DNA from: Gemmatimonadota bacterium
Lineage (GTDB): Bacteria; Gemmatimonadota; Gemmatimonadetes; Gemmatimonadales; GWC2-71-9
Direction: 5' to 3'
Assembly: GCA_016704275.1 (NCBI GenBank)
Contig: JADJAK010000003.1
Coordinates: 42,122 to 106,121 of the forward strand
DNA length: 64,000 nucleotides
How positions within the stretch are numbered: the first letter of the stretch is position 1; every line of letters starts with the position of its first letter. This document shows positions 6,538 to 61,072 of the stretch, piece after piece. The translations under genes and the position numbers were made by a program. Below the pieces are notes generated by a model. That model was not told where the DNA came from. It saw nothing but the letters and a program-made list of their open reading frames with translations, and ran no database searches.

Positions 6538-7271
6538 TCGCCCTCGGAGACGTCGCCATCATCGGTGGCGGCTGCTACGGCTCCTTCTACGCCACACAAC
6601 TTGCGAAGGCCCACGCCAAGGGCGCCGTCAGGTGGCGACGACTGCTGATCATTGATCGCGCCGCGGATTGCGCCATCGTCCCCACGCTCCCGACGATTCC
6701 GGCTGCCGAACTGGTCGTTTCCGAGTGGGGCGCCTTCCTCGACGCGTGGCTCGACGACTCCACGCGGCAAGACGACGATCAGATCGTTCCCTCGCCGTTG
6801 ATGCCGCACCTGCTCGCGCAGTGGCTCACGCGGCGCGCGGCCGAGGCGTGGCCGGAGCACAGTGTCAGCATGGTGAAGGTGGAGGCCGCCGTGGGCACGC
6901 CGTTCGACTGGCTGCACCCCGACGATGGCGTGCGGTATGTCTCCTTCGCCGATTGGCTCTGCCCGACCCACTGTGTCGAACCTGCGACCTGCCCGGTGAT
7001 CGCCGCGCCTCGCACCTGGGAGATGGGCGACGCGGTCGTGGCCTGGACCGAGGCGCGTCGTGCCGAGCGGCCCACCGCGGGCCCGGCGCTCTTCACCTGC
7101 CGCCACATGGTCCACGGGGTGGGGATGTACCGCGCACGCCTCGCCTTCGAAGGATTTCAGGCGCTGGCCACCCAGATGGCCGGGACGCCGGATGGCGCCG
7201 ACCTGGTCGTGGGGTCGGTGTCGGCGTGTCATGGGGCGGTGGGGGTGCTGCGGGTGACCAGTGACCAGTGA
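6534..7271 (+). CDS. Hypothetical protein with N-terminal dinucleotide-binding motif and a Cys-rich CPTHCVEPATCP segment
   Basis: ATG 6534 sits in an ATGA overlap. Contains an IIGGGCYGSFYA Rossmann-type motif. The last five codons (VTSDQ) and the stop lie inside heptamer repeat A. Confidence 0.6.
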   Translation: MIALGDVAIIGGGCYGSFYATQLAKAHAKGAVRWRRLLIIDRAADCAIVPTLPTIPAAELVVSEWGAFLDAWLDDSTRQDDDQIVPSPLMPHLLAQWLTRRAAEAWPEHSVSMVKVEAAVGTPFDWLHPDDGVRYVSFADWLCPTHCVEPATCPVIAAPRTWEMGDAVVAWTEARRAERPTAGPALFTCRHMVHGVGMYRARLAFEGFQALATQMAGTPDGADLVVGSVSACHGAVGVLRVTSDQ

Positions 7272-7349
7272 CCAGTGACCAGTGACCAGTGACCAGTGAG
7301 TTGTTCCTGGTTACCGGTCACAGGTTACTGGTTACTGGTTACTGGCTAC
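7254..7349. repeat. Heptamer-zipper hairpin A: 6 x GTGACCA, 12-nt loop, 6 x (T/C/A)GG(T/C)TAC-type inverted heptamers
   Basis: Read directly. The left arm is 7254-7295 and the right arm is 7308-7349. Most arm mismatches are G-U compatible in plus-strand RNA. Confidence 0.9.
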
Positions 7350-7429
7350 CTTCGGCCCCGGAACCCACCCCACCCCCCAATCGTTCTATATTCGCCACGC
7401 ACCATACGACCCCTTTTCCGGATCTCCGC

Positions 7430-8410
7430 ATGCGCACCGAAACTCTTGCCATCATCGGCTCAGGCCCTGCCGCCTGGACCGCCGCCATCTACGCGGCCCG
7501 CGCCAATCTTGACCCCGTGGTCTATGAGGGCGAGCCGTCGCGCGAGATGATCCCGGGTGGCCAGCTGATGTGGACCACGGACATCGACAACTTCCCCGGC
7601 TTCCACGAGGGCGTCGATGGCCAGGGATTGATGGAGCGGATGAAGGCGCAGGCGGTGCGCTTCGGCACGCGGGTCGTGAGCGAGAACATCGCGTCGGTCG
7701 ATTTTTCCCAGCGCCCGTTCACGCTGCGGCCCAGCTGGAGCGAGCCGGTGCAGGCCCAGGCGGTGATCGTGGCCACGGGCGCCCGCGCCATCTGGCTCGA
7801 CGTGCCCAACGAGTCGCGCCTGGCACAGAGCGGTGGCGGCGTCTCGGCGTGTGCCGTGTGCGACGGTGCCTTGCCGTTCTTCCGGAACAAGGTGCTCGCC
7901 GTCGTCGGCGGTGGCGACTCCGCGATGGAAGAGGCGACCTACCTCACCAAGTTCGCGCAGCAGGTGGTGATCATTCACCGGCGCGATTCCTTCCGGGCCT
8001 CGAAGGTGATGGCGGAGCGCGCGCTCAACCATCCGAAGATTCGCGTGGAGTGGAATTCGGAAGTCACCGCGGTCCTCGGTGATGACGAGATTACCGGCAT
8101 CATCGTGCGAGATACCATCTCGGGTGAGGAGCGGACCCTGGAGGTCGGCGGCCTCTTCGTCGCGATTGGCCACACGCCCAACACCGCCTTCCTCGACGGG
8201 CAGATCGCGACGACCCCGAAGGGATACATCCAGACGCCGGTCTCGTGGCGCACCGAGACCAACGTCGAGGGCGTCTTCGCAGCCGGCGATGTGATCGACG
8301 AGTACTACCGTCAGGCGATCACCTCGGCGGGCAGCGGCTGCATGGCGGCGCTCGAGGCGGAACGGTGGTTGGCGCACCATGGGCTCGAGCCCGTCGCCAC
8401 GCCAGCGTGA
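7430..8410 (+). CDS. trxB: Thioredoxin-disulfide reductase
   Basis: ATG 7430 ([27 protein letters not shown]). Contains the redox-active ACAVCDG motif and [15 protein letters not shown] motif. The ORF-track extension back to 7289 runs through the repeat. Confidence 0.9.
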
Positions 8411-9072
8411 TGGCCACCGCCGGGCTCGGCACGGCGTTGATCACCACCGGCGGCTTCGTGCAGAACTGCTGGTTGGTCTGGGACGAGTCGAGTCGCGAGG
8501 CGGTGGTCGTCGATCCGGGGGAGGGCAGTGACGAGATTCTCGCGGCGATCGCCGAGCGGAGTCTCGTCGTGCGAGGGATCTGGCTGACGCACGCGCACAT
8601 CGATCACATCCTCGGCGTGACGGCGCTCCGCGAGGCCACTGGGGCGCCGGTCTGGTTGCATCCCGCCGACCGCCGCTGGTACGACGCGCTCCCCGAGCAG
8701 GGCCGCTTCTTCGGCATCTCCGGGCTCGAGCCGCTGGCGCCTCCAGAACATGAGCTGGCCGAGGGCGACGAAGTCGCCGTTGGGGAGTATCGCTTCGTCG
8801 TGCGCCACGTCCCCGGCCACGCGCCGGGGCATGTCGCCTTCCTCGGCCATGGGGTCGCCATCGCAGGCGATGTCCTCTTCGTCGACTCGATCGGCCGAAC
8901 CGACCTGGCGGGTGGTGACCTCCCGACCCTGGTCCGGAGCATCGCCGAGGTCCTGCTGCCGCTTCCGGATGAGACCCGAGTCCTTCCCGGACACGGTCCC
9001 GAAACGACGATTGGCCGCGAGCGACGGCTGAATCCCTTCCTCGCCGTTCACCTTCCGTCGCTCTGCCCTTAA
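8410..9072 (+). CDS. MBL-fold metallo-hydrolase (glyoxalase II-like)
   Basis: ATG 8410 overlaps the trxB stop by 1 nt. Contains the THAHIDHILG zinc motif. Confidence 0.8.
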   Translation: MATAGLGTALITTGGFVQNCWLVWDESSREAVVVDPGEGSDEILAAIAERSLVVRGIWLTHAHIDHILGVTALREATGAPVWLHPADRRWYDALPEQGRFFGISGLEPLAPPEHELAEGDEVAVGEYRFVVRHVPGHAPGHVAFLGHGVAIAGDVLFVDSIGRTDLAGGDLPTLVRSIAEVLLPLPDETRVLPGHGPETTIGRERRLNPFLAVHLPSLCP

Positions 9073-9121
9073 GCTTCCCCCGGCCTCCGGGCCGGAACCT
9101 TTACCAGGACGCGACGCCCTC

Positions 9122-10543
9122 ATGTCATTCCGCACCGAAAAGGACCCCCTCGGCGAAAAGCAGGTCCCCGCCGACGCCCTCTACGGGATCCAGACCCTTC
9201 GTGCCGTCGAGAACTACCCCATCTCCGGACTGCGCCCCCTCGCCGGCTTCGTCGAAGCGGTGGTGATGATCAAGCGCTCCGCCGCCGTCGTCCACAAGCA
9301 CACCGGCCGCCTCGAAGCGGCGTATGCGGACGCGATCATCCAGGCCGCCGATGAAGTCCTTGCCGGCCAGCATCGCGACCAGTTCGTCGTCGATCCGTAT
9401 CAGGCCGGCGCCGGCACCTCGCACAACATGAACTGCAACGAAGTGCTCGCGAATCGCGCCAACGAGATCCTCGGCGCGGCCCGCGGCGCCTACGCGCCGG
9501 TGCACCCGAACGACCACGTCAACATGGCGCAGTCGACCAATGACGTCATTCCGACGGCGATGCGCCTCGGGACGCTCCGCGCGTTGCCGAAGCTGCTGGC
9601 GTCGCTCGATCAGTTGGCCGAGGCCTTCCTCGCGAAGGGGAAGCAGTTCGACCATGTCATGAAGTCGGGGCGGACGCACCTGCAGGATGCCACGCCGATT
9701 CGCCTGGGCCAGGAGTTCACGGCGTACGGGCACACCGTCGCACGGCATCGCGCCAAGCTGGCGCAGGCGGCGGATTGGCTTCGCCCGATGAACATCGGCG
9801 GCAGCGCCGTCGGAACCGGCATCAACGTCGAAGTCGTCTATCCCGGGCTGATGGTCACGGAGATGAGCCGACTCTCCGGCGTCGCGCTCGAGGTCTCGTC
9901 CGATCGAATCCAGTTGATGCAGTCGATGGGTGACATCGCCACGTTCAGCGGCGCGATGCGCGCCTTCGTGCTCGACCTCTGCAAGATCGCCGATGACATC
10001 CGCCTGCTCGCCTCGGGTCCGCGCACGGGGCTCGCCGAGATCATCCTGCCGGCGGTGCAGCCGGGATCGTCGATCATGCCGGGGAAGATCAACCCGTCGA
10101 TCGCCGAGATGGTCAATCAGGTCTGCTACCAGCTGCTCGGCTTTGACACCACGGTGGCGATGGCGGCGAAGGCGGGCGAACTCGAGCTCAACGTGATGAT
10201 GCCGGTCATCACGCACAATGTGCTCTTCGGCATGGAGATCCTCAGCAACACCGCCACGGTCTTCGCCGAGAAGTGCATCAGCGGCATCGAGGCCGACGAG
10301 GCGATGTGCGCGCACTGGCTGGAGCGGTCGCCGGCGCTGGTGACGGCGCTGATGCCGAAGATCGGCTACGCCGAGTCGGCGAAGCTCTCGAAGGAGGCGC
10401 TCGCGACCGGCAAGACGGTGAAGCAGCTGGTCACCGACAAGAAGGTCCTCGAGGGGAAGGAGCTGGACGAGGTGCTCGACCTCCGCGCGATGACCGAGCT
10501 CGGCGTGCCGGGCGGCGGCAAGGGCGTGCCGGTCAGCGGGTGA
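9122..10543 (+). CDS. aspA: Aspartate ammonia-lyase (fumarase/aspartase family)
   Basis: Contains the GSSIMPGKINP signature. YQAGAGTS, LPAVQPGSS and MAAKAGELELNVMMPVI resemble AspA more than FumC, judged from memory of the E. coli sequences. Confidence 0.7.
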   Translation: MSFRTEKDPLGEKQVPADALYGIQTLRAVENYPISGLRPLAGFVEAVVMIKRSAAVVHKHTGRLEAAYADAIIQAADEVLAGQHRDQFVVDPYQAGAGTSHNMNCNEVLANRANEILGAARGAYAPVHPNDHVNMAQSTNDVIPTAMRLGTLRALPKLLASLDQLAEAFLAKGKQFDHVMKSGRTHLQDATPIRLGQEFTAYGHTVARHRAKLAQAADWLRPMNIGGSAVGTGINVEVVYPGLMVTEMSRLSGVALEVSSDRIQLMQSMGDIATFSGAMRAFVLDLCKIADDIRLLASGPRTGLAEIILPAVQPGSSIMPGKINPSIAEMVNQVCYQLLGFDTTVAMAAKAGELELNVMMPVITHNVLFGMEILSNTATVFAEKCISGIEADEAMCAHWLERSPALVTALMPKIGYAESAKLSKEALATGKTVKQLVTDKKVLEGKELDEVLDLRAMTELGVPGGGKGVPVSG

Positions 10544-11715
10544 CCGACACCGACACCGCCCGATGGCGGCGGCTGGCGCTGCTCGCCTTCGCCGTCGTCG
10601 GGGGGATGTCCACCTGGTTTGCGGGGAGCGTCGCCGCTCCCCTCCGTGCAGCCGACCTCGCCCTCACCTCGGGCGAGGTCGGCTGGTTGGTATCCGGCGT
10701 GCAACTCGGCTTCGTGCTGGGCACGCTGCTGATCGCGGTGCTCAACATCGCGGACGTGGTGCCGGGGCGCCGACTCTTCGCGGTGTCTGCGATGGGGGCC
10801 GCGATGGCGAACGCGGCGTTGCTGGTCGCGCCCACGCTTCCATGGCTCGTCGCGTCGCGGCTCGCCACCGGATTCTGTCTGGCCGGCGTGTACCCGCCCG
10901 CGATGAAGATGGCGGCCACCTGGTTCCGTCACTCGCGCGGGCTCGCGATCGGCACCGTGGTGGGTGCGCTCACCATCGGCAAGGCGCTGCCCTACCTGCT
11001 GCAGGGGAATGGCGCCGTCGCCATCGAGCTGGTGGTCCTGGTCCCGTCGCTCGCCGCCCTCGCCGCCGCCGTGCTCATTGGCACCACTTGGCACGACGGA
11101 CCGCACGCCTTCCCGGCCAGGCCCTTCCACTGGGGGCTGATCGGCGAGGTGGTGCGCGACGGACCACTGCGTCGCGTCACCGGCGGCTACCTCGGTCACA
11201 TGTGGGAGGTCTACGCCTTCTGGGCGTGGGTGCCTGGCTTCCTGACGGCGGCGGCGGCCGCGCGTGGCGAGGTGGCGACCGCGCACGGGACGGCGGCCTT
11301 CACGATCGTCGCGATCGGCGCCATCGGCTGCGTGGGCGGCGGGTTGCTGGCCGACCGCATCGGGCGGCGCCAGGTCGTGCGCGGGGCGATGCTGCTCAGT
11401 GGCACCCTCGCCGCGCTCTCCCCGCTGCTCTTCGGCGCACCGGCCTGGCTGTTGATGGCGGCGCTGCTGGTGTGGGGCATCGCCGTGATCGCCGACTCGG
11501 CGCAGTTCTCAGCGCTCGCCACCGAACTCGCTCCGCCACACGCCGTCGGCACCGCCCTCGCGCTGCAAACGTCGCTTGGCTTCCTGCTCACCATCGCGAG
11601 CATCCAACTCGTGCCGATGCTCGCCGATGCGCTCGGATGGCGCTGGGCGCTGGCGGTGCTGGCGGTGGGGCCGTTGGTTGGGGTGGGGGTGTTGCGGAAG
11701 GGAAGTGATCAGTGA
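10540..11715 (+). CDS. MFS transporter
   Basis: GTG 10540 sits in a GTGA overlap. About 12 predicted hydrophobic helices with an MFS-like loop (DRIGRRQ). The stop TGA 11713-11715 lies in repeat B. Confidence 0.75.
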   Translation: MTDTDTARWRRLALLAFAVVGGMSTWFAGSVAAPLRAADLALTSGEVGWLVSGVQLGFVLGTLLIAVLNIADVVPGRRLFAVSAMGAAMANAALLVAPTLPWLVASRLATGFCLAGVYPPAMKMAATWFRHSRGLAIGTVVGALTIGKALPYLLQGNGAVAIELVVLVPSLAALAAAVLIGTTWHDGPHAFPARPFHWGLIGEVVRDGPLRRVTGGYLGHMWEVYAFWAWVPGFLTAAAAARGEVATAHGTAAFTIVAIGAIGCVGGGLLADRIGRRQVVRGAMLLSGTLAALSPLLFGAPAWLLMAALLVWGIAVIADSAQFSALATELAPPHAVGTALALQTSLGFLLTIASIQLVPMLADALGWRWALAVLAVGPLVGVGVLRKGSDQ

Positions 11716-11782
11716 CGAGTGACCAGTGACCAGGTCACCACAGGTCACAGGTCACAGGTTACAGGTTACGGTCACTCGTTAC
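11704..11782. repeat. Heptamer-zipper hairpin B: 4 x AGTGA(C/T)(C/G) facing about 6 x AGGT(C/T)AC; same heptamer family as A
   Basis: Read directly. It lies between convergent genes and contains the stop codons of both (11713-11715 on plus, 11772-11774 on minus). Confidence 0.9.
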
Positions 11783-12992: not shown

Positions 12993-13004
12993 CTTCAGGC
13001 GGGC

Positions 13005-13605: not shown

Positions 13606-13608
13606 CCC

Positions 13609-14778: not shown

Positions 14779-14801
14779 CCGGCAGTGCCGGGTCCTGCGA
14801 G

Positions 14802-14885
14802 TGCCGAAGGGGGGACTCGAACCCCCACGGGCTTGCGCCCACTGCGCCCTGAACGCAGCGCGTCTACCAGTTCCACCACTTCGGC
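14802..14885 (-). tRNA. tRNA-Leu (anticodon CAG)
   Basis: The reverse complement reads GCCGAAGTGGTGGAACTGGTAGACGCGCTGCGTTCAGGGCGCAGTGGGCGCAAGCCCGTGGGGGTTCGAGTCCCCCCCTTCGGCA. It has a cloverleaf with a long variable arm and the anticodon loop TTCAGGG. CCA is not encoded. Confidence 0.9.
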
Positions 14886-19551: not shown

Positions 19552-19566
19552 AAATGGTGCACGGGG

Positions 19567-19751: not shown

Positions 19752-19752
19752 C

Positions 19753-22618: not shown

Positions 22619-22650
22619 TGGCTCCGTGCCCTGCTCCGACGGTTGGACGA

Positions 22651-22677
22651 AAGGGGACCCTCGGGTCCCCTTTTTTT
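22651..22677 (+). terminator. Rho-independent terminator of the rpoA-rplQ operon
   Basis: AAGGGGACC-CTCG-GGTCCCCTT stem-loop followed by a T7 run, read directly. Confidence 0.8.
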
Positions 22678-22758
22678 CCGTCCGCGGCCGTCCAGGCAAG
22701 CCAAACGGGTGGCACCCGTGAAGGGCGCCACCCGTTGATCACTCCGGGAGCAGAACGG

Positions 22759-22968
22759 TCAGGCCGCGACAGCGACCTTGGTGGCCTTGGCCACCTTCCC
22801 GCTCTTCATGCACTTGGTGCAGACCTTCACCCGGCGGGGCGAGCCGTCCACCAGGACGCGGACCGTCTGGAGGTTCGGGTACCAGCGGCGCTTCCGCCGG
22901 TTGTTCGCATGGCTGACATGGTTGCCGGTAGTCGGCCCCTTGTCGCAGATGGTGCAGACGCGCGCCAT
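22759..22968 (-). CDS. rpmB: 50S ribosomal protein L28
   Basis: MARVCTICDKGPTTGNHVSHANNRRKRRWYPNLQTVRVLVDG. This is an internal ATG of the 103-aa ORF 22759..23070. Confidence 0.9.
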   Translation of the reverse strand: MARVCTICDKGPTTGNHVSHANNRRKRRWYPNLQTVRVLVDGSPRRVKVCTKCMKSGKVAKATKVAVAA

Positions 22969-28214: not shown

Positions 28215-29170
28215 CCACCGCGCGCGACCCAGGCTTCGCCGCCGCGTTGCGCGCACGCGTCCAGGGTGACCTGCGCGAGGGCGAGCCGCTCTCGCGCTGG
28301 TCCACCTATCGTATCGGTGGCCCGGCCACCGTGCTCATGCCGGCCAATGCGGAAGACGTTGCGATCGCCGTGCGGATGGCGGCTGAGGCAGGCGTGCCCT
28401 GGTTCGCCCTCGGACTCGGCTCCAACCTCCTCTTTCCCGACGCCGGCCTCGATGCGCTGGTGATTCGCATGGGGAAGGGGCTCGATGCGCTCCGTCAGGA
28501 GGGCGATCGCTGGACCCTGGGAGCCGGGCTGCCGGCGCCACTCGCCGCCAAGCGGACCGCAGCGGCGGGGTGGGCCGGCATCCACAAGATGGTGGGCGTG
28601 CCAGGGAGTGTCGGCGGGGGGATCGTGATGAACGCCGGCTGCCACGGGGCCGAGTGGCGCGACACCGTGGTCTCGGTCCTGGTCATGGACGCCGATGGGC
28701 AGGACCGCGTTGTCTCGGCGGCGGAGGCCGGCTTCTCCTATCGGCGCAGCCAGCTTGGACACGTCGTCGTGCTCGAGACGACGTGCGCGCTTGTTGCCGC
28801 GGACCCGACCCACCTCGAGGCCGAGACGGAAGAGCTGTACAAGTGGCGCCGCGACGGCACCCCGTTCAACCAGCCCTGCTGCGGCTCGGTCTTCCAGAAT
28901 CCGGTACTGCCAGCCGTGTGGGCCGAGGGCAACCCGCGCACCAGCGGGCAGTGCATCGACGCGACGGGCCTCAAGGGACTCCGCGTCGGCGGCGTCGAGG
29001 TCTCGCCGATGCACGCCAACTACTTCGTCAATACCGGTGAAGGCACCGCCGCCGACGTGATCGCATTGATGGGTGAGGTGCGGGCGCGGGTGCAGGCTCG
29101 GTGGGGAGTGGAGTTGGTGCCGGAGGTGAAGCTGATTGGGGTCGATGGGAGTGTTGTGGGGCTGTCGTAG
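28211..29170 (+). CDS. murB: UDP-N-acetylenolpyruvoylglucosamine reductase
   Basis: GTG 28211 sits in a GTGA overlap. Motifs: [29 protein letters not shown]. The stop TAG 29168-29170 lies in repeat C. Confidence 0.9.
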
Positions 29171-29309
29171 GTCGTAGGTCGTAAGTCGTAGGTCGTAGGT
29201 CCTCCAAGGCTGTCATCCCGAGCGCAGCGAGGGACCTGCGTTCCGGCGGGTACGCAGATCCCTCACGTTGCTCGGGATGACTTACGACTTACGACCTACG
29301 ACTTACGAC
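29165..29309. repeat. Heptamer-zipper hairpin C with core: 5 x TCGTA(G/A)G, a 71-nt palindromic core (TGTCATCCCGAGCG...CTCGGGATGAC), 4 x (C/T)TACGAC
   Basis: Read directly. The core is 29211-29281. The element contains the stop codons of murB (plus strand) and the kinase gene (minus strand, 29303-29305). Confidence 0.9.
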
Positions 29310-31909
29310 TTCTTTGCCACCGTATCCGCCCTGATCCGCTCCGCCTCGCCCTTCCTCCCCAGCGCCTCATACTCCGCCGCCAGATCCGTTCGCGCTGCCT
29401 TCAGGTAGGACACCGACGGCTCCGCTTGCGTGACCAGGATGTCGAACCCCGCCTTCGTTTCGTCCAGCGCTTCCTGGTATCGCGTCTGCCGCAGCAACGA
29501 GCGCCCGAGCTTGAGCCGGGCGATCGCAGTGTTGACGTGGGTGGCGCCCTGCGATGCGGTGAAGATCCGCTTCGCCTCGCGGAACTGCGCTTCGGCGGCA
29601 CGATAGTCTTCGCGGCCATTGGCGACGGCGCCAAGGTTCGAGATGGCGATGCCGGTGCGCCAGTCGTCGGGCCCGTGCACCTGCTGGTAGATCGCACGGA
29701 CCCGTCGGTACGACGCCTCGGCCTCATCGAACTGTTTGGCGGCCAGGTCGAGCGACGCCAGTTCGTTGAGGGCCGATGCCACGCGCGGGTGATTCGGACC
29801 CGCCGTGCGCAGCTGGATCGCGAGCGCTTCGCTCAGCAGCGCGCGTGCTTCGTCGGGACGCTCGAGCCGGCTGACCGCGCGCCCGACCTGCGTGATCGCC
29901 GAAGCCGTCGTGGGATTGTCGGTACCGTACCAGGCGCGGATGATGTCCAATGCCTGGCGTTGCTCCTGCTCGGAGAGCGCGTAGTCGCCGCGCTGGAAGG
30001 CGCTGGCGCCAAGGTTGGTGTGGATCTCTGCCACCGAGGGATGGCGTGGCCCACGGGTGGCGAGCAGCAAGGGGAGCGCCTCACGATGCAGCGAGTCGGC
30101 GCGCGCGTACTCGCCGGCGTAGAAATAGGTGGCGGCGAGGTGCACCATCGCGGTGGCGCGGAGCAGCGGGTCGGCGGTCCGACGAGCCACGAGCACCGAG
30201 TCCTGGATCGCTCGGGCCGCGGGGTACTCGCCACGTTCCTGCAGCACCGCGCCGAGCGCCGCCATCGCCTCGACAATCGCGGGGTCATCGGCGGGGTAGG
30301 TCGTGCGCGCCATCGCCAGGCCTGCGCGCACCAGCGACTCCGCGGGCGCCAGTTGTGCCTGATCGACGCGGAGGAGGCCGAGCGCCACCAATCCCGCGGC
30401 GACGTCGCGATGGATCGGGCCGTGCAAGGCGCGTTGCCGAGCCAGGGAGCGGGTGAGCAACGAGTCGGCGCGGTCGTAGTCACCGAGATGCTGGTGGATC
30501 GTGCCCAGCGTCGCGTACAGCTCGGCCTGGCCCTCGGGGTCCCGATCGAGCACCGCGGCTTCCTGTTCGCCGCGCTCGAGCAAGCTGCGCACCGAGAGCG
30601 AGTCTGCCGGGCCGGCGTCGTCACTGCCGCCAGAGAAGAGCCCCATCGTGAAGCGCTGAATCCGCTCGGCTCGGCGCGCCTCGAGTTGCGCCGCGTCGCG
30701 GGCGTCCGCGAGGCGCATCGTGTAGTAGGTCACCATGCCGATCGCCGCGATGGCCACGGCCGTGGCGGCCGAGACCTCGCGCCACCGGCGCCGGAGCAAC
30801 TTGCCGGTGCGATACCGCCAGCGCGCCGGATGGGCCTCGAGTGGTTCGCCTGCGAGGAAATGGTCAATGTCCCGCGCGAACGCCTCGACCGTGCCATAGC
30901 GCAGCATCGGGTCGCGCTGGATCGCGGTGAGCGTGAGGATGTCGAGGTCGCGCCAGGTGGCGTCGTTCCCGGTCCGGCGGCCATGCCGTGCGGCGGCAAG
31001 GGAGGGTCGAACCGGGGGCTCGGTCAGGCGACGCGCAATGGTATCGGCGCCCCCGAACGGGCGCTGCCCGGCAAGCAACTCGTAGAGGATCACCCCGAGG
31101 GCATGGACGTCAGTCTGCGCGCTGACAATCCCTTCGGCGATCTGTTCCGGCGCGGCGTAGGCGGGAGTGAGTAGGCCGGCACCGGTCTGCGTCTGCACCG
31201 GGTCCTCGGTGTCCTCGAGTTGCTTGGCGATGCCGAAATCGAGAAGGGCCACGCGCCCATCAGCGCCCACGAGAATGTTGGACGGCTTCAGGTCGCGGTG
31301 GATGACGGCCCGCGCGTGGGCATACTGCACCGCCTCGCACGCGGCCCGCAACAGCTGGAGCCGCTCCGTGATCGACAGCTGGCGGCGCTCGCAGTAATCC
31401 GTCAGATGCTCGCCCTCGACATACTCCATCACGAACCACGGTGTCCCATCCTCGAGCGCGCCGGCGTCGTGCAACTGCGCGATGCCCGGGTGCACCAGGC
31501 GCGCCAACGTCCGCTGCTCCCGTCGAAAGCGCGCTCGGCGCGCTGGTGAGAGCCAGGCATCGCGGAGGATCTTCAGCGCAGCCTCGGTGCCGAGGTCATC
31601 GCGGGTGACGAGATAGACGATCCCCATCCCACCCTCGCCGAGCTGGCGCACGATGCGGTATGGCCCGAAGGAGCCGCCGGCAGGAGTGGTGGGCGCCGCC
31701 AGCAGATCGGCTGCCATCGCGCCGATGCCGACGCCGAGCAGGTCGCCTTCGGCCGCATCGGCGACGAGCATCGCACGCACCCGGGTCGCAACCTCCGGGT
31801 CGTCGCCGGCCCAGGTGTGGAGCATTGCCTCGCGTTGGTCGGCGGGTAGCTCGAGGGCCCGGTGGAAGAGGGCCATGGCGCGTGCATGGCGTGCCGCCGG
31901 TGAGGTCAT
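29303..31909 (-). CDS. Serine/threonine protein kinase with C-terminal TPR repeats (ECF-sigma-associated type)
   Basis: ATG 31909 sits in an ATGA overlap with the sigma-gene stop. The kinase domain has GEGGMGIVY, HRDLKPSNIL and DFGIAK. One TM helix (VSAATAVAIAAIGMVTYY) is followed by about 500 aa of TPR. The 1185-aa ORF-track version is an upstream shadow extension. Confidence 0.85.
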   Translation of the reverse strand: MTSPAARHARAMALFHRALELPADQREAMLHTWAGDDPEVATRVRAMLVADAAEGDLLGVGIGAMAADLLAAPTTPAGGSFGPYRIVRQLGEGGMGIVYLVTRDDLGTEAALKILRDAWLSPARRARFRREQRTLARLVHPGIAQLHDAGALEDGTPWFVMEYVEGEHLTDYCERRQLSITERLQLLRAACEAVQYAHARAVIHRDLKPSNILVGADGRVALLDFGIAKQLEDTEDPVQTQTGAGLLTPAYAAPEQIAEGIVSAQTDVHALGVILYELLAGQRPFGGADTIARRLTEPPVRPSLAAARHGRRTGNDATWRDLDILTLTAIQRDPMLRYGTVEAFARDIDHFLAGEPLEAHPARWRYRTGKLLRRRWREVSAATAVAIAAIGMVTYYTMRLADARDAAQLEARRAERIQRFTMGLFSGGSDDAGPADSLSVRSLLERGEQEAAVLDRDPEGQAELYATLGTIHQHLGDYDRADSLLTRSLARQRALHGPIHRDVAAGLVALGLLRVDQAQLAPAESLVRAGLAMARTTYPADDPAIVEAMAALGAVLQERGEYPAARAIQDSVLVARRTADPLLRATAMVHLAATYFYAGEYARADSLHREALPLLLATRGPRHPSVAEIHTNLGASAFQRGDYALSEQEQRQALDIIRAWYGTDNPTTASAITQVGRAVSRLERPDEARALLSEALAIQLRTAGPNHPRVASALNELASLDLAAKQFDEAEASYRRVRAIYQQVHGPDDWRTGIAISNLGAVANGREDYRAAEAQFREAKRIFTASQGATHVNTAIARLKLGRSLLRQTRYQEALDETKAGFDILVTQAEPSVSYLKAARTDLAAEYEALGRKGEAERIRADTVAKKS

Positions 31910-33510: not shown

Positions 33511-33708
33511 GGATGATGGAGGATGGATGATGGAGGATGGATTGTGGTTGTCATCCTGAGCGGAGCCCGCGAAGCGGGCGTAGTCGAAGGACCTCTTTCC
33601 CGGCGTGCGGAGAGAGGTCCTTCGACTGCGCAGCCCGGTGGGCTGCTTCGCTCAGGATGACAACAGTTCAGGCAGGACGCCCCAATCCATCATCCATCAT
33701 CCATCAGT
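33511..33708. repeat. Heptamer-zipper hairpin D with core: GGATGAT/GGAGGAT x5, a 118-nt core (GTTGTCATCCTGAGCG...CGCTCAGGATGACAAC), 20-nt spacer, about 3.5 x ATCATCC
   Basis: Read directly. The core is 33547-33664. The response-regulator stop (33704-33706, minus strand) lies in the right arm. The lipoprotein stop lies 1 nt before the left arm. Confidence 0.9.
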
Positions 33709-47467: not shown

Positions 47468-50629
<3,162 letters not shown>

Positions 50630-50672
50630 CCTTTCAGGCGCCGTCTTCAGGCGCGGTTCTCAGGCGCGGATG

Positions 50673-50735
50673 TCAATCCGCGCCATCCGCAAAGATCCTG
50701 AATGAAGCCGCCGCAAGGCGGCTTCGCTGCATTCC
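50673..50735 (+). terminator. Two tandem GC-rich hairpins downstream of secA
   Basis: GGCGCGGA-tgtcaa-TCCGCGCC (50673-50694) and GAAGCCGCC-gcaa-GGCGGCTTC (50714-50735). There is no U-tract. Confidence 0.35.
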
Positions 50736-55738: not shown

Positions 55739-55966
55739 ATGGCCACCCTGGAGTTGGTCGGAGTCCCTGAATCCCTGATCGAACGACTGACCGCCCTCGC
55801 TGTCGAGAACAATCGCAGCTTGAGCGAGGAGGCTGTCGCCGCCCTCGAGCAGTGGGTGGAGACGACTGCACTCATATCGCGGCTCCGGGAGCATCGCGCG
55901 AAGCTTCATGTTCCACCGTTGACCGACGCTCAGCTTCGTCGCATGAAGAACGACGGGCGCCGCTAA
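55739..55966 (+). CDS. Ribbon-helix-helix (Arc/FitA/VapB-like) DNA-binding protein; antitoxin-like, no toxin partner seen
   Basis: ATG 55739 follows GAGGAG. MATLELVGVPESLIERLTALAVENNRSLSEEAVAALEQWV shows an RHH pattern. Confidence 0.5.
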   Translation: MATLELVGVPESLIERLTALAVENNRSLSEEAVAALEQWVETTALISRLREHRAKLHVPPLTDAQLRRMKNDGRR

Positions 55967-56035
55967 CGCCCCATCCCGCCACCCCGTGCGCTCGTTCGCG
56001 CCGTTCCCCGCACACCCACGCCGCCACCTTGCGGC

Positions 56036-56710
56036 ATGCCCACCCTCCTCGCCGATCATGACCGCCCCCGCGAACGCCTCTGGCGCCTCGGCCCCGCCGC
56101 CCTCAATGTCCGCGAACTCCTCGCCATCCTCCTCGGCACCGGCTCCGGTGAACAGGACGCGCTCGCCACCGCCGAACAGTTGTTGCACGCCGCCGATGGC
56201 GGGCTGCGCCGACTCGCAGCACGGCCCGGCGCCGAACTGATGAAGACCGCCGGCGTGGGCGAGGCGAAGGCCGCCCGCCTCCTCGCCGCGTTTGAACTCG
56301 CCGGTCGACTCGCACGCGAGGCACGCCCCGCTGCGCCACGCATCCGCGAACCGGCCGACGTTGCCCGCTTCGTTGGTGACCGACTTCGCGACCTCCCCGT
56401 CGAGGAGTTCCACCTGCTGGCGCTCGACACCCGGTCGCGCGTGCTCCGCGACGTGCTGGTCACCCGTGGACTGATTGACTCGTCGCTGGTGCATCCGCGC
56501 GAGGTCTTCCGCGCGGCGATCGCCGAGGCGGCGGCAGGGATCATCCTGGTGCACAACCATCCGAGTGGCGACCCGACGCCGTCCCCCGAGGATCGGGCGG
56601 TGACGCGGCAGCTGGTGGCGGCGGGGCAGCTGCTCGACCTGCCGGTGTATGACCATGTGATCATTGCGGGGGATCGGTTTACGAGCTTTGCGACGGCGGG
56701 ATTGCTATAG
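56036..56710 (+). CDS. radC: RadC-family (JAMM/MPN) protein
   Basis: The N-terminus is PRERLWRLGPAALNVRELLAILLGTG. Contains an HhH motif and the JAMM motif LVHNHPSGDPTPSPED. Confidence 0.9.
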   Translation: MPTLLADHDRPRERLWRLGPAALNVRELLAILLGTGSGEQDALATAEQLLHAADGGLRRLAARPGAELMKTAGVGEAKAARLLAAFELAGRLAREARPAAPRIREPADVARFVGDRLRDLPVEEFHLLALDTRSRVLRDVLVTRGLIDSSLVHPREVFRAAIAEAAAGIILVHNHPSGDPTPSPEDRAVTRQLVAAGQLLDLPVYDHVIIAGDRFTSFATAGLL

Positions 56711-56715
56711 GGGAC

Positions 56716-56754
56716 GATGATCGATGATCGATGGTCGATGATCGATGATCGATC
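56716..56754. repeat. Heptamer array E (single arm): GATGATC x2, GATGGTC, GATGATC x2, GATC
   Basis: Read directly, 5 nt after the radC stop. It matches the reverse complement of 61041-61072, except that E has one extra GATGATC unit. Confidence 0.9.
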
Positions 56755-57008
56755 GAAGGGGCGCGCGGAGTCGGGGTCGTTGACGCGAGGACCGTCCAGT
56801 CGCTCGCCGGGCGACCATCTGTCCAACGGGGCGGCGACCCACCGGCGTGCGACGTCGGACCGCAGCGTCAGCGAGCCCCGACCCGTGCGCCCCCCGGGCC
56901 CTCCGGGCCGCTGACGCCCTGGGGCCGACCTCGCACGCCGGGGCGCGCCGGCCGGTGGCGAGACCGGATGGTCACCCGGCGAACGCTGGACTCCGGCCGG
57001 CTACGCCG

Positions 57009-57146
57009 TCGCTCCGCTCAGGATGACAATCCGTTGGGGTACCGAGGACAGCGAGTTCGGAGGCCCCGCCGCCCTGCGGGGGCGGGGAGAGGCGAATCGA
57101 GAGGTCCTTCGACTGCGCCCGCTACGCGGGCTCCGCTCAGGATGAC
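57009..57146. repeat. Degenerate or partial copies of the GTCATCCTGAGCG-core element (two right halves: CGCTCCGCTCAGGATGAC at 57009-57027; GAGAGGTCCTTCGACTGCGCCCGCTACGCGGGCTCCGCTCAGGATGAC at 57099-57146)
   Basis: Read directly and aligned by eye to the right halves of cores D and F. No left half was found. Confidence 0.75.
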
Positions 57147-57191
57147 AGCTACGGTTGTTGACGCCACGCCCGGGCCCCGCCATTGTCAGGC

Positions 57192-59363
57192 ATGTCCCCG
57201 ACTCCCGCGGCCGACCTCTCCGACCTCTCGCCGGGCTTCTTCGCCACCCTGGAGAAGCACGCCGACCGGCTCGACATTGCCCTGATCGACCGCGCCCTCC
57301 GGTATTCGGCCGCCGCCCACCGGGGACAGAAGCGGATGAGCGGCGAAGACTTCGTCGAGCACTCGATCGCCGTCGCGTCGATCCTCGCCAGCCTCCTGGT
57401 CGACACCACCTCGATCTGCGCCGCGCTGCTCCACGACGTCGTCGAAGACTCCGACATCAGCACCGATGACATCGCACGCGAGTTCGGCCCCGAAGTCGCC
57501 GGCCTGGTCGATGGCCTCACCAAGATCTCCTCGCTCTCGTTCAGGTCATCCGTCGAGGAGCAGTCCGAGAACTACCGCAAGCTGCTGCTCTCGGTGGCGA
57601 AGGACGCGCGCGTCATCATCATCAAGCTCGCCGACCGCCTCCACAACATGCGGACGCTCGAGCACCTGCAGCAGGCGCGTCGCGAACGGATCGCCACCGA
57701 GACGCGCGAGATCTACGCGCCGCTGGCCCACCGCTTCGGCATGGCGAACGTCAAGGCGGAACTCGAAGACCTGGCGTTCAAGTTCCTCGAGCCCGACGAA
57801 TATCAGGCGCTCGCCGTGCAGGTCGCCGCCAAGCGCGCGCAGCGCGAGGAGATGATCGCCGGCCTCCGCACCCCGCTCGAACAGGAACTCCGCCGCGCCG
57901 GGATCCAATGGTCCGACGTCTCCGGCCGGCCGAAGCACCTCTGGTCCATTTACCAGAAGATGAAGAAGCGCGGCAAGCCGTTCGAGGAGATCTACGACCT
58001 CATGGCGATGCGCGTCACCGTCCAGACCGTCCCCGAGTGCTATCACGTCCTCGGCGTGATCCACCACCGCTGGACGCCGCTCCAGGAACGGATCAAGGAC
58101 TACATCGCGAGTCCCAAGTCGAACGGCTACCAGTCGCTGCACACCACCATCTTCGGGCCGAACGGCCAGCTGTTCGAGATCCAGATCCGCACGCAGGAGA
58201 TGCACCGCACCGCCGAGTACGGCATCGCGGCGCACTGGCTCTACAAGACGCTCAACAGCGGCGAGGAATTGGACCAGCAGCTCGGGTGGTTCCGGCAGCT
58301 GATGGAGCTCCAGCAGGAGAGCGCGTCGGCCGAGGACTTCCTCGAGTTCCTCAAGGTCGACCTCTACCACGACGAGATCTTCATCTTCACGCCGCAGGGC
58401 GACGTGAAGCAGCTGCCGAAGGGCGCCACCGCGATCGACTTCGCCTTCCACGTCCACACCGACGTCGGCTTCCGCACCCAGGGCGCCAAGGTCAACGGCC
58501 GGATCGCGCCGCTCCACCGCGAGCTCAAGAACGGCGACACCGTCGAGATCCTCACCTCGCCGCAGGCCAAGCCGTCGCGCGACTGGCTCGCGCACGTCCG
58601 CACTGGCCGAGCGCGCAGCAAGATCAAGCAGTGGATCCGGCAGGAAGAGGAGGCGGTGTCGTCGCAGCTCGGCCGCGAGATCCTCACGCGTGAGCTGAAG
58701 CGCCGCCGACTCGAGGCGCCGTCGGCCGAGGCGATGCATCAGGCGGGGATCACCCTCAACCTGATGGATGGCACCGCACTCGAGGTCTCACTCGGTCGCG
58801 GCGATCTCGCGATTGGTCAGGTGATGCGCGCGCTCTTCCCGGACCTGGCGCCCGATGCCTTGCAGGAGAAGCCGGCGACGATCTTCGGCCGCGTCGTCGA
58901 TCGTTTCCGCCTTGGCCGCGGCATCAAGATCCAGGGCGTCGACGGCCTGATGATCCGCTACGCCCAGTGCTGCCAACCGGTCCCGGGCGACGAAGTGGTG
59001 GGGTACGTCACGCAGGGCCGCGGCATCTCGATCCACCGCGCCGACTGCCCCAACCTCCTCACGCTGGGCGGCGAGGGACGCCGGGTCGAGATCGACTGGC
59101 AGGAGCAGAGCGGCGAGACCTTCGCGGTGCGGCTCGTCGTCACCGGCGAGGACCGTCGCGGCCTCTACGCCGACGTGATGCAGGCGATCTCGCAGACCGG
59201 CACCAACATTCGTGGCGCCGACCTCCACTCGAAGGACGGCTCGGTCTTCGGCACGATCTTCGTCGAAGTCGACAACCTGCCGCACCTGGCGAAGGTGCTG
59301 AAGGCGATCCGAAGGGTGAAGGGGGTCAGCACCGTCGAGAGGCGGGAGGCTCAAGGGCCGTAG
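57192..59363 (+). CDS. spoT: Bifunctional (p)ppGpp synthetase/hydrolase (RelA/SpoT homologue)
   Basis: Contains the HD domain (AHRGQKRMSGEDFVEHSI...HDVVED), the synthetase domain (YQSLHTTIFGPNGQLFEIQIRT), and TGS and ACT C-terminal regions. ATG 57192 (TTG 57183 is an alternative). Confidence 0.9.
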   Translation: MSPTPAADLSDLSPGFFATLEKHADRLDIALIDRALRYSAAAHRGQKRMSGEDFVEHSIAVASILASLLVDTTSICAALLHDVVEDSDISTDDIAREFGPEVAGLVDGLTKISSLSFRSSVEEQSENYRKLLLSVAKDARVIIIKLADRLHNMRTLEHLQQARRERIATETREIYAPLAHRFGMANVKAELEDLAFKFLEPDEYQALAVQVAAKRAQREEMIAGLRTPLEQELRRAGIQWSDVSGRPKHLWSIYQKMKKRGKPFEEIYDLMAMRVTVQTVPECYHVLGVIHHRWTPLQERIKDYIASPKSNGYQSLHTTIFGPNGQLFEIQIRTQEMHRTAEYGIAAHWLYKTLNSGEELDQQLGWFRQLMELQQESASAEDFLEFLKVDLYHDEIFIFTPQGDVKQLPKGATAIDFAFHVHTDVGFRTQGAKVNGRIAPLHRELKNGDTVEILTSPQAKPSRDWLAHVRTGRARSKIKQWIRQEEEAVSSQLGREILTRELKRRRLEAPSAEAMHQAGITLNLMDGTALEVSLGRGDLAIGQVMRALFPDLAPDALQEKPATIFGRVVDRFRLGRGIKIQGVDGLMIRYAQCCQPVPGDEVVGYVTQGRGISIHRADCPNLLTLGGEGRRVEIDWQEQSGETFAVRLVVTGEDRRGLYADVMQAISQTGTNIRGADLHSKDGSVFGTIFVEVDNLPHLAKVLKAIRRVKGVSTVERREAQGP

Positions 59364-59369
59364 GGGAAT

Positions 59370-59582
59370 GGTGAGGGGTGAGGAGTGAGGGGGAAGTTGT
59401 CATCCTGAGCGAAGCCCGCGCAGCGGGCGAAGTCGAAGGACCTCTTTCCGGTGCGCACGGTTAGAGGTCCTTCGACTGCGCAGCCCTTCGGGCTGCTACG
59501 CTCAGGATGACACCCGATGGCTCCCCTCACCCCTCACCCCTCACCTCAACACCCCTCACCTCAACACCCCTCACCTTAACAC
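59370..59582. repeat. Heptamer-zipper hairpin F with core: 3 x (G/A)GTGAGG, a 118-nt core nearly identical to core D, then 3 x CCTCACC merging into 3 x 15-nt CCCTCACCT(C/T)AACAC
   Basis: Read directly. The core is 59396-59513. The metallophosphoesterase stop (59571-59573, minus strand) lies in the right arm. Confidence 0.9.
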
Positions 59583-60512
59583 CATCCTCCGACTACTGAT
59601 CCCCGCACTCCTCCCCACCACCCCATCCGAACTCGCCGGCGGTGCCTTCACGAAGCCCCCGTCGCGGCCAGTGATCCGCAGGATCCCGTCGGCGCCGAAG
59701 TCCAGGAAGGCGAAGAGCGGATTGGTGTAGGGATGCATCCCGCCTGACCAGAAGTAGCTGGCTGAGTTGATCGTGAGGCAGGGAATGCCGTCGACGCGTT
59801 CGAGGCGATCGACGTGGAGGTGGCCGCTGAGGCAGCAGGCGACTCGGCCCCGCGGATTGGCGCGTGCCGCGGCACGGATCAGGTCAAAGATCTCGCGCTG
59901 TTCATCGGGAAGCGCGTTGTCGGCGCCGCCGATGCCGAGCGGCTGGTGCCCGATCAGGACCACGGGCTCGCGCGAGGTGCGCAGCTGCCGGTCGAGCCAG
60001 GCGAGCTGTTCGGGGTCGGCGCGATTGAGCTCGCTGCCGGCATTGAAGTAGTTCCCGTTGGCGTAGGGGAGGACCTTGCCGTCCTTTCGGAAGTTGTTCA
60101 GGTCGAGCGCCACGAATCGCCAGCCGCCGATGACGGTGGCGTGATAGCGTGATGCCATTCCCCACGCCGCCATCGCCGCCGCCTTGTCGACCTTGTCCAT
60201 GTCGTGGTTGCCGAGGACGGAGAAGCGGGGCAGCGTGATACTCCTCCACTTCGTCAGCAACTCCTCGGCGCCGGCGTCGGAGTAGCAGAAGTCGCCGAGC
60301 TGCCAGACGGCGTCGAGATCCTGGTGCTGGGCAATCGCCGCGAGGAAGGCGTCGAAGCGCGCGAGCGCATCGGGGGCGAGGCCGTGATGGAGATCGGTGA
60401 TCAGCGCGAGCCGAGCGCCGGCGCGCGGGGCTGCGCCGACGGGAAGCCGCACGGAGAGCAGCGGCACGGCGGCGCCGGCAGCGGTGAGGAAGTCGCGGCG
60501 GGAGAGCGTCAT
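59571..60512 (-). CDS. Tat-secreted metallophosphoesterase
   Basis: ATG 60512 (MTLSRRDFLTAAGAAVPLL, a twin-arginine signal). Motifs: LITDLHHG, GDFCY, LGNHDMD, GHQP, GHLH. The ORF-track extension to 61004 is a shadow extension. Confidence 0.8.
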   Translation of the reverse strand: MTLSRRDFLTAAGAAVPLLSVRLPVGAAPRAGARLALITDLHHGLAPDALARFDAFLAAIAQHQDLDAVWQLGDFCYSDAGAEELLTKWRSITLPRFSVLGNHDMDKVDKAAAMAAWGMASRYHATVIGGWRFVALDLNNFRKDGKVLPYANGNYFNAGSELNRADPEQLAWLDRQLRTSREPVVLIGHQPLGIGGADNALPDEQREIFDLIRAAARANPRGRVACCLSGHLHVDRLERVDGIPCLTINSASYFWSGGMHPYTNPLFAFLDFGADGILRITGRDGGFVKAPPASSDGVVGRSAGISSRRMVLR

Positions 60513-60537
60513 CGAGGCCTCGGGGAGGGGAACCAAC

Positions 60538-60557
60538 GCCCCGAATATATTCGGGGC
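60538..60557. promoter_or_regulatory. 20-bp perfect palindrome GCCCCGAATATATTCGGGGC in the 45-bp divergent intergenic region
   Basis: Read directly. It ends 1 nt before the EVE-gene ATG and lies 26 nt from the metallophosphoesterase ATG. The centre AATATATT is AT-only in a roughly 70% GC context. Confidence 0.5.
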
Positions 60558-60965
60558 ATGCCAACCCTCCTGCTCAAGTCCGAACCCTCCGTCTACTCCT
60601 TCGACGACCTCCTGCGCGACGGCCACGCCGTCTGGGACGGAGTCGCCAATGCGCAGGCCCTCATCGTCCTCGCCGGCGCCAAGGTCGGCGACGAGGTCCT
60701 GATCTATCACTCGAACGACGGCAAGGCGATCGTCGGCCTCGCCAAGGTCACCAAGAAGGCCTATCCCGACCCGAAGCTCGCCGACCCGAAGCGGCTGGTG
60801 ATCGAGATCGCCCCCGTGAAGGCGCTCCAGACCCCGGTCACCCTGGCCGACATCAAGGCGGTCCCGGGGCTGGCCGACCTGGCGCTGGTGAGGCAGAGTC
60901 GACTGAGCTGCATGTCCGTGAGTCGGGAACATCGATCCCTGCTGCGGGGGCTCGGAGTCCGATGA
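60558..60965 (+). CDS. EVE-domain (PUA-like) protein
   Basis: MPTLLLKSEPSVYSFDDLLRDGHAVWDGVANAQA...GDEVLIYHSN...IVGLAKVTKKAYPDP. The stop TGA 60963-60965 lies in the first heptamer of repeat G. Confidence 0.8.
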   Translation: MPTLLLKSEPSVYSFDDLLRDGHAVWDGVANAQALIVLAGAKVGDEVLIYHSNDGKAIVGLAKVTKKAYPDPKLADPKRLVIEIAPVKALQTPVTLADIKAVPGLADLALVRQSRLSCMSVSREHRSLLRGLGVR

Positions 60966-61072
60966 TCGATGATCGATGATCGATGATCGATGATCGATTC
61001 TCAACTCGCAGCACCGTCCCCATCAACCGGGCCCGGGCCCGATCGATCATCGACCATCGATCATCGATCATC
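60961..61072. repeat. Heptamer-zipper hairpin G: 5 x GATGATC, 45-nt loop, GATC + GATCATC, GACCATC, GATCATC x2
   Basis: Read directly. It has 9 GATC sites in 112 nt. The loop contains GGGCCCGGGCCC. Confidence 0.9.

Follow-up and report, generated by a model that had tools for sequence, protein, structure and literature searches.

Heptanucleotide-repeat palindromes at gene ends in Gemmatimonadales: candidate slippage-built, REP/BIME-like hairpins

The DNA analysed here is a 64,000-nucleotide stretch of a Gemmatimonadota genome (contig JADJAK010000003.1 of assembly GCA_016704275.1, positions 42,122 to 106,121 of the forward strand; hereafter the window), whose genes are core chromosomal and include rpsM-rpoA-rplQ, carB, murB, secA, relA and uvrB. 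Its RelA/SpoT sequence places it in the Gemmatimonadales, with matches of up to 86% identity among GTDB species representatives and of up to 100% among metagenome-assembled genomes from wastewater, groundwater and soil. Tandem Repeats Finder (TRF) reports 13 arrays of period 7 in the window, of 3.1 to 7.3 copies each, which all fall at seven loci, A to G, and finds no further period-7 array of at least three copies in the 64 kb; 100 dinucleotide-preserving shuffles of the window yield only seven such arrays in total, or ~0.07 per window. At six of the seven loci the arrays form paired arms, E being unpaired. These loci and their coordinates had been proposed from the bare sequence in a preliminary reading, the original prediction, and both a renewed reading of the sequence and TRF bear them out. 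We describe them as palindromes built of heptanucleotide repeats at gene ends, and lean towards the view that they were built by slippage and resemble REP/BIME elements in position and presumed role.

Element A stands where an AF_1314_C-like gene, assigned by orthologue annotation, is followed by a trxB-like gene. Its 5′ arm, (GTGACCA) ×6.6 with 100% matches (7254..7299), overlaps the stop codon of the former gene (7269-7271), its 3′ arm, (GGTTACT/GGTCACA) ×6.7 (7303..7349), is located upstream of both the trxB-like gene and a promoter-like TATATT box, and the whole folds at -98.5 kcal/mol (z -9). The flanks beyond the arrays also pair, GGGGCGGTGGGGG at 7233-7247 with CCCACCCCACCCCCC at 7365-7379, and are possibly older arm units in decay, now coding for protein C-termini. 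Element B lies between the convergent genes of an MFS transporter and a LuxR-type regulator: the 5′ arm, (AGTGACC) ×4.3 (11704..11733), holds the stop codon of the first (11713-11715) and the 3′ arm, (CAGGTCA/CAGGTTA) ×5.4 (11739..11782), that of the second on the minus strand (11772-11774), with a fold z score of -5. At C, the gene for MurB converges with a Ser/Thr kinase-TPR gene; the 5′ arm, (GTCGTAG) ×5.4 (29164..29201), holds the MurB stop codon (29168-29170), the 3′ arm, (CTTACGA/CCTACGA) ×4.7 (29279..29311), holds the minus-strand stop codon of the kinase gene (29303-29305), and between them lies a core, a short palindrome GTCATCCCGAGCG...CTCGGGATGAC of what we call the C type (29212..29281), which is also found in L222 (L-numbers are labels of the DNA stretches from relatives and strains that were compared with the window).

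Element D separates a DUF6252 gene from the convergent gene of an OmpR-type response regulator. Its 5′ arm begins 1 nt past the DUF6252 gene's stop codon and alternates GGATGAT and GGAGGAT units, (GGATGAT GGAGGAT) ×2.3 (33511..33542), and its 3′ arm, (ATCCATC) ×3.1 (33685..33706), holds the minus-strand stop codon of the regulator (33704-33706); the arms enclose a 112-nt palindromic core, the D type, which nhmmer and a consensus fold delimit at 33550..33661 and which is predicted to fold into a four-way junction. Element E lies between the co-directional genes of RadC and RelA/SpoT and consists of a single, nearly self-complementary array, (GATGATC) ×5.6 (56715..56753), which begins 5 nt past the RadC stop codon; degenerate right halves of D-type cores follow at 57011..57148, before the start of relA. 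Element F, between the RelA/SpoT gene and a convergent metallophosphoesterase gene, has a 5′ arm, (GGTGAGG) ×3.3 (59370..59392), that begins 6 nt past the RelA/SpoT stop codon, a D-type core found in the same way as that of D (59399..59511), and a 3′ arm of three CCCCTCA units followed by the 15-mer CCCCTCACCTCAACA (59523..59583), which holds the minus-strand stop codon of the metallophosphoesterase gene (59571-59573). Finally, G lies between an EVE-domain gene and the co-directional gene of UvrB: its 5′ arm, (CGATGAT) ×5.6 (60960..60998), spans the last codon and the stop codon (60963-60965) of the EVE-domain gene, and its 3′ arm, (ATCGATC) ×4.6 (61042..61073), ends directly upstream of a promoter-like motif of uvrB, CCCGAACATTCCCCGAAA..TTATATT, with fold z scores of -6 to -10. 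A and G each directly precede a conserved promoter-like box (..TATATT..) that belongs to the following gene. The eleven stop codons initially assigned to the edges or the inside of these arms are the ends of open reading frames (ORFs) with Pfam-supported products or annotated orthologues.

A motif CCCGAACATYCCCCGAAA-N(5-8)-TTATATT/TTATCTT recurs ~10 nt before the uvrB start across Gemmatimonadales (61074-61121 in the window; L002-L098), and a similar one, ..CAATCGTTCTATATTCGCC.., lies upstream of the trxB-like gene (7365-7395); both are probably lineage-specific promoter elements. When the uvrB promoter motif CCGAACATYCCCCGAA was used to scan metagenomes, almost all matches arose by chance and only L108 and L118 were real.

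RNA folding supports the proposed stems at six of the seven loci: on both strands A-D, F and G reach -50 to -151 kcal/mol, with z scores of -5 to -14 against shuffles, whereas E folds weakly (-26 kcal/mol, z -1.3). The arms of a pair are ~88% complementary, and their mismatches comprise 9 sense wobbles, 12 antisense wobbles and 14 transversions. Folding energies of the plus and minus strands show no consistent bias, and strand-specific selection on the RNA, which we considered, leaves no signal in either these energies or the balance of G·U and A·C mismatches. The same elements recur, base for base at G, in at least 10 assemblies made independently in different studies, which excludes the assembly artefact that had been raised as a possible source of the pattern.

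The five unit types in the window are unrelated to one another and most lack GGG. What the arms do share is a polarity: in 25 of 27 distinct pairs, comprising ~20 units, the 5′ arm is purine-rich with more G than C, independently of the strand. Purine loading of the Szybalski type was rejected as the source of this polarity, as the sense strands of coding sequences (CDSs) are 49.7% purine. The last 60 nt of the CDSs called in the window are G-rich (GC skew +0.11, 54% purine), and whole CDSs have a skew of ~0.

The core, GTCATCCYGAGCG...CGCTCRGGATGAC, is a separate dispersed palindromic repeat with three full copies in the 64 kb. Its presence in C, D and F had been recognised from the start, to which the halves downstream of E can be added, as can a half at site C of L221. 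It also occurs alone, without heptamers, at L001:254-370, a variant GTCATTGCGAGG...CTCGCAATGAC lies at L047:2949-3040, and one and the same site can carry different core types in different strains. Six copies of the D type support the four-way junction, in which seven pairs are kept through changes on both sides. No match of the core to a known family emerged: Rfam scans of arms and cores, by gathering score and by E-value, gave only chance snoRNA matches (E ~0.4-0.5), plasmid and phage collections gave none, and the literature gave only unrelated primers. Across the window the only Rfam covariance model to reach its gathering score is that of a tRNA-Leu (CAG; 14801-14885, minus strand), which lies between a ThiF/rhodanese gene and smpB and is the only RNA gene found there.

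The elements occupy a distinct position in the genome. Four of the five convergent gene pairs in the window carry one (hypergeometric P = 0.0027), the exception being rplQ/rpmB, and the proposed association with gene ends thus holds strongly. We then took a census of intergenic gaps in the examined Gemmatimonadota DNA, using a simple codon-model gene caller and counting arrays of period 7 or 8: such arrays are present in 16 of 19 convergent gaps (84%), 28 of 321 co-directional gaps and about 2 of 24 divergent gaps, figures that show persistence at sites rather than independent events, as many of the gaps are orthologous. The arrays are not found inside genes as often as elsewhere, only 5 of 90 distinct arrays lying deep within called genes. 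Furthermore, 1.28 Mb of de-duplicated Gemmatimonadota DNA holds 77 arrays of period 7, 14 of period 6 and 10 of period 8, and 331 kb of high-GC Myxococcota DNA fetched by the same query holds a single period-7 array, so that the arrays are enriched in the lineage and are not a property of GC-rich DNA.

The rplQ/rpmB junction has a canonical intrinsic terminator after rplQ (22648-22680), GGGGACCC-TCG-GGTCCCC followed by T7, which the consensus scan for intrinsic terminators did not list, and a second hairpin there faces rpmB (L28, minus strand, 22759-22968). Sites with a canonical hairpin and T-run are not above shuffle expectation in the window, and the same consensus scan flags none of the heptamer elements. 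A set of GC-rich repeats of 9-33 nt at 3242-3666, between an E1-beta gene and the catalytic domain of an E2 acyltransferase (2-oxoacid dehydrogenase), is probably coding, representing the Ala/Pro-rich linker of E2, and unrelated to the heptamer elements.

To follow the elements at orthologous sites, we compared close strains, retrieved via their RelA, DUF6252 and AspA orthologues, site by site. In all strains the array at site G has its start right at the EVE stop codon and stops short of a conserved CCCGAACATYCCCC motif, and yet its unit differs: GATGATC in the window, L081 and L092, GGATGAT in the 5′ arm of L091, CGAGAAG in L093, L098, L005 and L118, CGAACAG in L094, CCGAGGA in L096, GAGAGAA in L097, GAGATCC in L048 and GGCGACA in L051. 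The ten distinct cassettes at this site all form long stems (z ~ -5 to -10). In L091 a single C-to-G change has come to fill four of the five 5′-arm units, the 3′ arm retaining the old unit, which is homogenisation within a single arm. Copy number varies as well, in one-unit steps between strains with identical or nearly identical neighbouring proteins, in keeping with the slippage proposed at the outset: (CGTTCAC) is present in three or four copies in strains with an identical neighbouring protein, and at site C (GTCGTAR) ×8.7/3.4 stands against ×5.4/4.7, an expansion that lengthens MurB by six residues (326 aa vs 320 aa). At F, the window and L086 have one copy of the 15-mer CCCCTCACCTCAACA fewer in the 3′ arm than the other sister assemblies (L081-L090), and the window lacks 24 nt that are inserted into the core's central hairpin in L081-L090, whose RelA is identical.

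A further notion is that the arrays are bound by a factor whose footprint is 7 nt, for example a single-strand binder of the cold-shock type, or that they are G-quadruplex-forming repeats. The strict period and the strict polarity of the 5′ arm would suit either, CspB binds heptamer repeats with one protein per unit (PMC4679880), and G-quadruplex formation has been demonstrated for the GGGAATC repeats of Xanthomonas (PMC4692102). Sequence-specific recognition is nonetheless hard to reconcile with units that change even at one site, and the partner arm would sequester any such site in a duplex. For most units (GTGACCA, GATGATC, GTCGTAG and CGAGAAG among them) the lack of GGG runs makes the quadruplex unlikely, and it was rejected for them; we regard the whole proposal as very improbable.

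Whole cassettes can also be replaced. Between L094 and L096 the ~6.4 kb flanking site G differ at 18 positions (99.7% identity), and their ~100-nt cassettes have neither unit nor loop in common. Unit vocabularies are moreover specific to a genome: in the window GTGACCA is the unit of both A and B, and GATGATC that of both E and G, while in L228-233 both A and B carry GGTGAAC/GGTGAAA in place of GTGACCA. Similarity also crosses between non-orthologous sites, element A and L098's F site matching at 88% along a 51-nt stretch that runs through the loop.

These observations are what one would expect of non-autonomous mobile DNA of the REPIN, MITE or BIME kind, copied by a trans-acting enzyme such as a RAYT/IS200-like single-strand transposase, with the gene-end position reflecting where insertions are tolerated or targeted. 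The unit and loop common to element A and the L098 F site, the genome-specific vocabularies with their parallel switch at A and B, and the replacement of whole cassettes between nearly identical flanks all fit such a process, as do the coexistence of empty sites with sharply bounded filled ones, the BIME-like construction of sites as mosaics of arrays, cores and small GC hairpins, and the dispersal of the core, which can stand on its own. No target-site duplication is visible in comparisons of filled with empty sites, however, and the MITE-like mode of spread that the original prediction offered alongside slippage does not hold up in this respect. The elements share their period only and no conserved sequence, within an element the two arms have unequal copy numbers and are homogenised separately, many arms are single, and no transposase gene was found in the window. 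A tblastn probe with an E. coli RAYT sequence found no match in fragments of Gemmatimonadota genomes, a result that is uninformative for complete genomes. We consider mobile DNA of this kind to be unlikely.

A related possibility is an active, lineage-specific process that writes 7-mer palindromes at gene ends, or copies and pastes them there, and periodically overwrites them. The genome-specific vocabulary, the parallel switch at A and B and the difference between the L094 and L096 cassettes are its grounds. We give it a low probability; were it real, it would be a mobile or gene-conversion system of a new kind that targets hairpins, perhaps linked to the GTCATCC...GGATGAC core.

The comparison of strains also bears on a neutral reading, in which slippage growth and template-switch mirroring at small hairpins in dispensable DNA leave a functionless by-product. 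The rapid turnover of units is what such a reading predicts, together with the variable presence of the elements, including six relatives with an empty G site, the degenerate or single arms (E; L003, L021, L059), the lack of a strand-specific wobble signal, and the fact that heptamers are the commonest long class of simple-sequence repeats (SSRs) in many bacteria, attributed to polymerase slippage. It accounts poorly for the persistence of a long stem at one site through at least eight unit sequences, for arms that are still ~88% complementary despite independent homogenisation, for the 84% occupancy of convergent gaps, and for the polarity of 25 of 27 pairs. Long perfect palindromes are normally unstable in bacteria, and their persistence here therefore suggests some benefit. 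On these grounds a purely neutral origin appears doubtful.

Several rearrangements and variable regions accompany the elements. In L005 (15700-16040), L047 (3451-3585), L108 and L118 the EVE-domain gene lies in inverted orientation with respect to uvrB, the cassette staying by the uvrB promoter, and the metallophosphoesterase gene between relA and the EVE-domain gene is present in only part of the genus, being absent in L093 and L097; rearrangement breakpoints thus coincide with hairpin sites. The spacer from the RadC stop codon to the relA start (56710-57192) ranges from 450 to 838 nt across strains whose RelA is 99-100% identical (L081, L082, L085, L091, L092, L098), and contains indels, inverted 135-nt segments and core halves; in L091 and L092 it has extended runs of G or C resembling assembly errors of long reads. 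Right after the secA stop codon, a 13-nt tandem repeat, TTCAGGCGCSGTC ×2.8, is followed by two small GC hairpins (50629-50730), and a distant relative, L016, has (GTGACCA) ×5 after its secA stop codon, the unit being that of A and B. The spacing of 4.2-4.5 kb at which elements had seemed to come in pairs is not kept in relatives, where A and B are 5.3 kb apart in L228 and E and G 6.3 kb apart in L093; it tracks gene content, and we treat it as a coincidence.

The original prediction centred on a different property, namely that every heptamer contains a stop triplet, and envisaged a selected dual module in which tandem 7-mers close three reading frames per strand and the stem serves as a bidirectional terminator. 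Within the window the pattern is striking enough: stop triplets are found on the incoming strand of all 13 arms and are virtually absent from the opposite strand, 10 of the 13 close three frames, and eight CDSs terminate inside an arm. Closure of all six frames, as claimed, is achieved by five elements but not by E (two frames) or G (five of six). In the genus, TGA, TAG or TAA is present in every unit that reaches over a CDS end, the nine T-containing unit types are all stop-bearing (4.4 would be expected across all 13 unit types), variants retain the stop (GTCG-TAG, -TAA, -TGA; GTGA-CCA, -GGG, -ACG, -AAG), and the length of an array can alter a protein's end, as in MurB.

The case for the stop triplet is confined to this lineage. 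All five unit types of the window do bear a sense-strand stop, but the probability of this given unit base composition is ~0.02 and not the fifth power of one in eight that the first rough estimate implied. The stop triplet does not extend to the family, since among distant relatives it is found, on either strand, at only 5 of 24 array loci, where composition predicts 5.5, and of six unit types seen at the orthologous G site four are stop-free (CGAGAAG, CGAACAG, CCGAGGA, GAGAGAA). The stop-bearing units of the genus fall into about three related families (GTGA-NNN, GATGAT-N, GTCG-TAG/TAA/TGA), and the enrichment, with a nominal P of ~0.08 if they are taken as independent, is consequently not robust. 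It arises largely because the 5′ arm is purine-rich and contains T, and the strand bias follows from the same polarity. Periods of 4, 5, 8, 10 and 11 would be equally suitable for closing frames, yet 7 dominates. A selected dual module thus seems to us quite improbable, and in the simplest reading the stop triplets arise as a by-product and act as a filter, a stop module being no more than a side effect local to the lineage.

Taken together, the data lead us to favour, with some reserve, the reading of these elements as Gemmatimonadales palindromes of heptanucleotide repeats at gene ends, built by slippage and REP/BIME-like in position and presumed role. Their identity and dynamics are well supported, and they probably function as bidirectional transcription barriers or protectors of 3′ ends. 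In the strains compared, the arms expand, contract and homogenise via slipped-strand mispairing in 7-nt steps, remaining ~88% complementary as the unit sequence turns over, with unit types shared by loci of one genome and whole cassettes replaceable between near-identical strains. The elements are confined almost entirely to non-coding DNA, abutting or overlapping stop codons and filling most convergent junctions, and some pairs of arrays are wrapped around the separate, dispersed core repeat. In the mechanism that we propose, inverted partners may come about and keep matching each other through a switch of template at a small hairpin in the centre, through selection on pairing, or through the two combined. 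When transcription enters from either side, the stem of 20-40 bp could act in both directions in a REP/BIME-like manner, blocking or attenuating read-through, insulating the next promoter and shielding the 3′ end of the mRNA from exonucleases. In a purine-rich 5′ arm a unit that contains T would tend to spell TGA, TAG or TAA, and only stop-bearing units could creep over the end of a CDS without lengthening the protein, a possible origin of the filter mentioned above.

A number of observations weigh against this slippage-built, REP/BIME-like reading. Gradual slippage alone can hardly account for the replacement of whole cassettes between flanks that are 99.7% identical. The function proposed for the stem is read from position and stability only, no T-run or U-tract follows the 3′ arm of any of the elements A-G, and the arm mismatches show no bias towards sense-strand G·U pairs, so that nothing specifically indicates selection at the RNA level. 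In L005, L118 and L047, where the EVE-domain gene is inverted, the cassette sits between the divergent EVE and uvrB genes, which makes a terminator role unlikely there, and in L013, L014, L017, L035, L037 and L049 the EVE-uvrB site is empty, from which it follows that the hairpin is dispensable at that site.

If the proposed function is correct, a whole phylum-level lineage of bacteria that abound in soil and wastewater would end many of its transcription units by very long, repeat-built hairpins, and would achieve termination without the textbook hairpin-plus-U-tract. The elements also have consequences for annotation, with ORFs that run into arrays, C-termini that vary with copy number and spurious ORFs within cores. 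Moreover, they provide a natural experiment in which structure is kept at one orthologous site through at least eight unrelated 7-mers, making it possible to ask how the arms of a palindrome co-evolve and whether simple-sequence repeats can give rise to REP-like families. Finally, the hypervariable cassettes are potential fine-scale strain markers for Gemmatimonadales in metagenomes.

Comparison with known systems places the elements between several described classes. Like intrinsic terminators, they form stable, GC-containing stem-loops directly after genes and are bidirectional between convergent ones; intrinsic terminators, however, are short GC-rich hairpins with stems of ~5-12 bp and a U-tract, whereas elements A-G have stems of 20-40 bp with repetitive arms and lack the U-tract. 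Heptanucleotides are the commonest long SSR class in many bacteria, a pattern put down to slippage (Mrazek et al. 2007, summarised in PMC4679880 and PMC4692102), and the heptanucleotide SSRs so described, including those of the cyanobacteria Calothrix and Nostoc, agree with the present arrays in the dominance of period 7 among non-triplet repeats, in intergenic location and in their attribution to slippage. As far as those secondary citations convey, they are direct arrays, and the inverted hairpin, the position at stop codons and the occupancy of convergent gaps do not figure in those accounts.

The TAACTGA repeats of marine Beggiatoaceae (MacGregor 2015, PMC4679880) are likewise intergenic heptamer arrays that end the ORFs they overlap, and the all-frame-stop arithmetic of a stop-bearing heptamer is already known from them, as they place stops in all three frames. 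They consist of a single fixed unit, are nearly all direct, with one inverted case, and lie mostly just upstream of start codons; the units described here are variable and lie at 3′ ends, and most of those in relatives are stop-free. The closest functional and positional analogues are the REP, BIME and REPIN elements of enterobacteria and pseudomonads (PMC3116915; PMC3337134; bioRxiv 10.64898/2026.03.23.713779), extragenic palindromes downstream of genes which form inverted doublets with long hairpins, fall into species-specific families, build mosaics and have proposed roles in 3′UTR stability or termination. The present elements are indeed extragenic, gene-downstream hairpins, but REPs have a conserved sequence of 20-40 nt in hundreds of copies and a cognate RAYT, whereas here only the 7-nt period is shared, the arms are arrays and the units differ between loci and strains; the core, though repeated, reaches three full copies in the 64 kb, and no RAYT was identified in the window or in the genome fragments probed. 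Terminal inverted repeats with a target-site duplication, the hallmark of MITEs, are likewise not in evidence, filled and empty sites coexisting without flanking duplications.

The architecture had at first been thought undescribed, but its closest precedent is found in Xanthomonas, where inverted pairs of tandem heptamers beside stop codons have been reported (Rehm et al. 2015, PMC4692102). Each Xanthomonas genome has 183-186 GGGAATC arrays, mostly of ~4 copies and ~90% intergenic, of which 70-75 loci are convergent inverted pairs; they are rarer between divergent genes, are not at the same genes in two related species, and have the G-rich array on the coding strand, 0-50 bp away from the stop codon or overlapping it, and the arm polarity reported there is as it is here (PMC4692102). 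The two systems thus have in common tandem 7-mers, convergent arrays paired as stem-loops and a purine-rich array at the stop codon. Xanthomonas, in contrast, has one genome-wide consensus (GGGANTN) with G-quadruplex potential, whereas the elements described here, in a different phylum, use mostly G-quadruplex-incapable units and share no single GGG consensus. What is new relative to the Xanthomonas precedent is the coexistence of many unrelated units, the embedded palindromic core, and the documented turnover of units and replacement of cassettes at orthologous sites.

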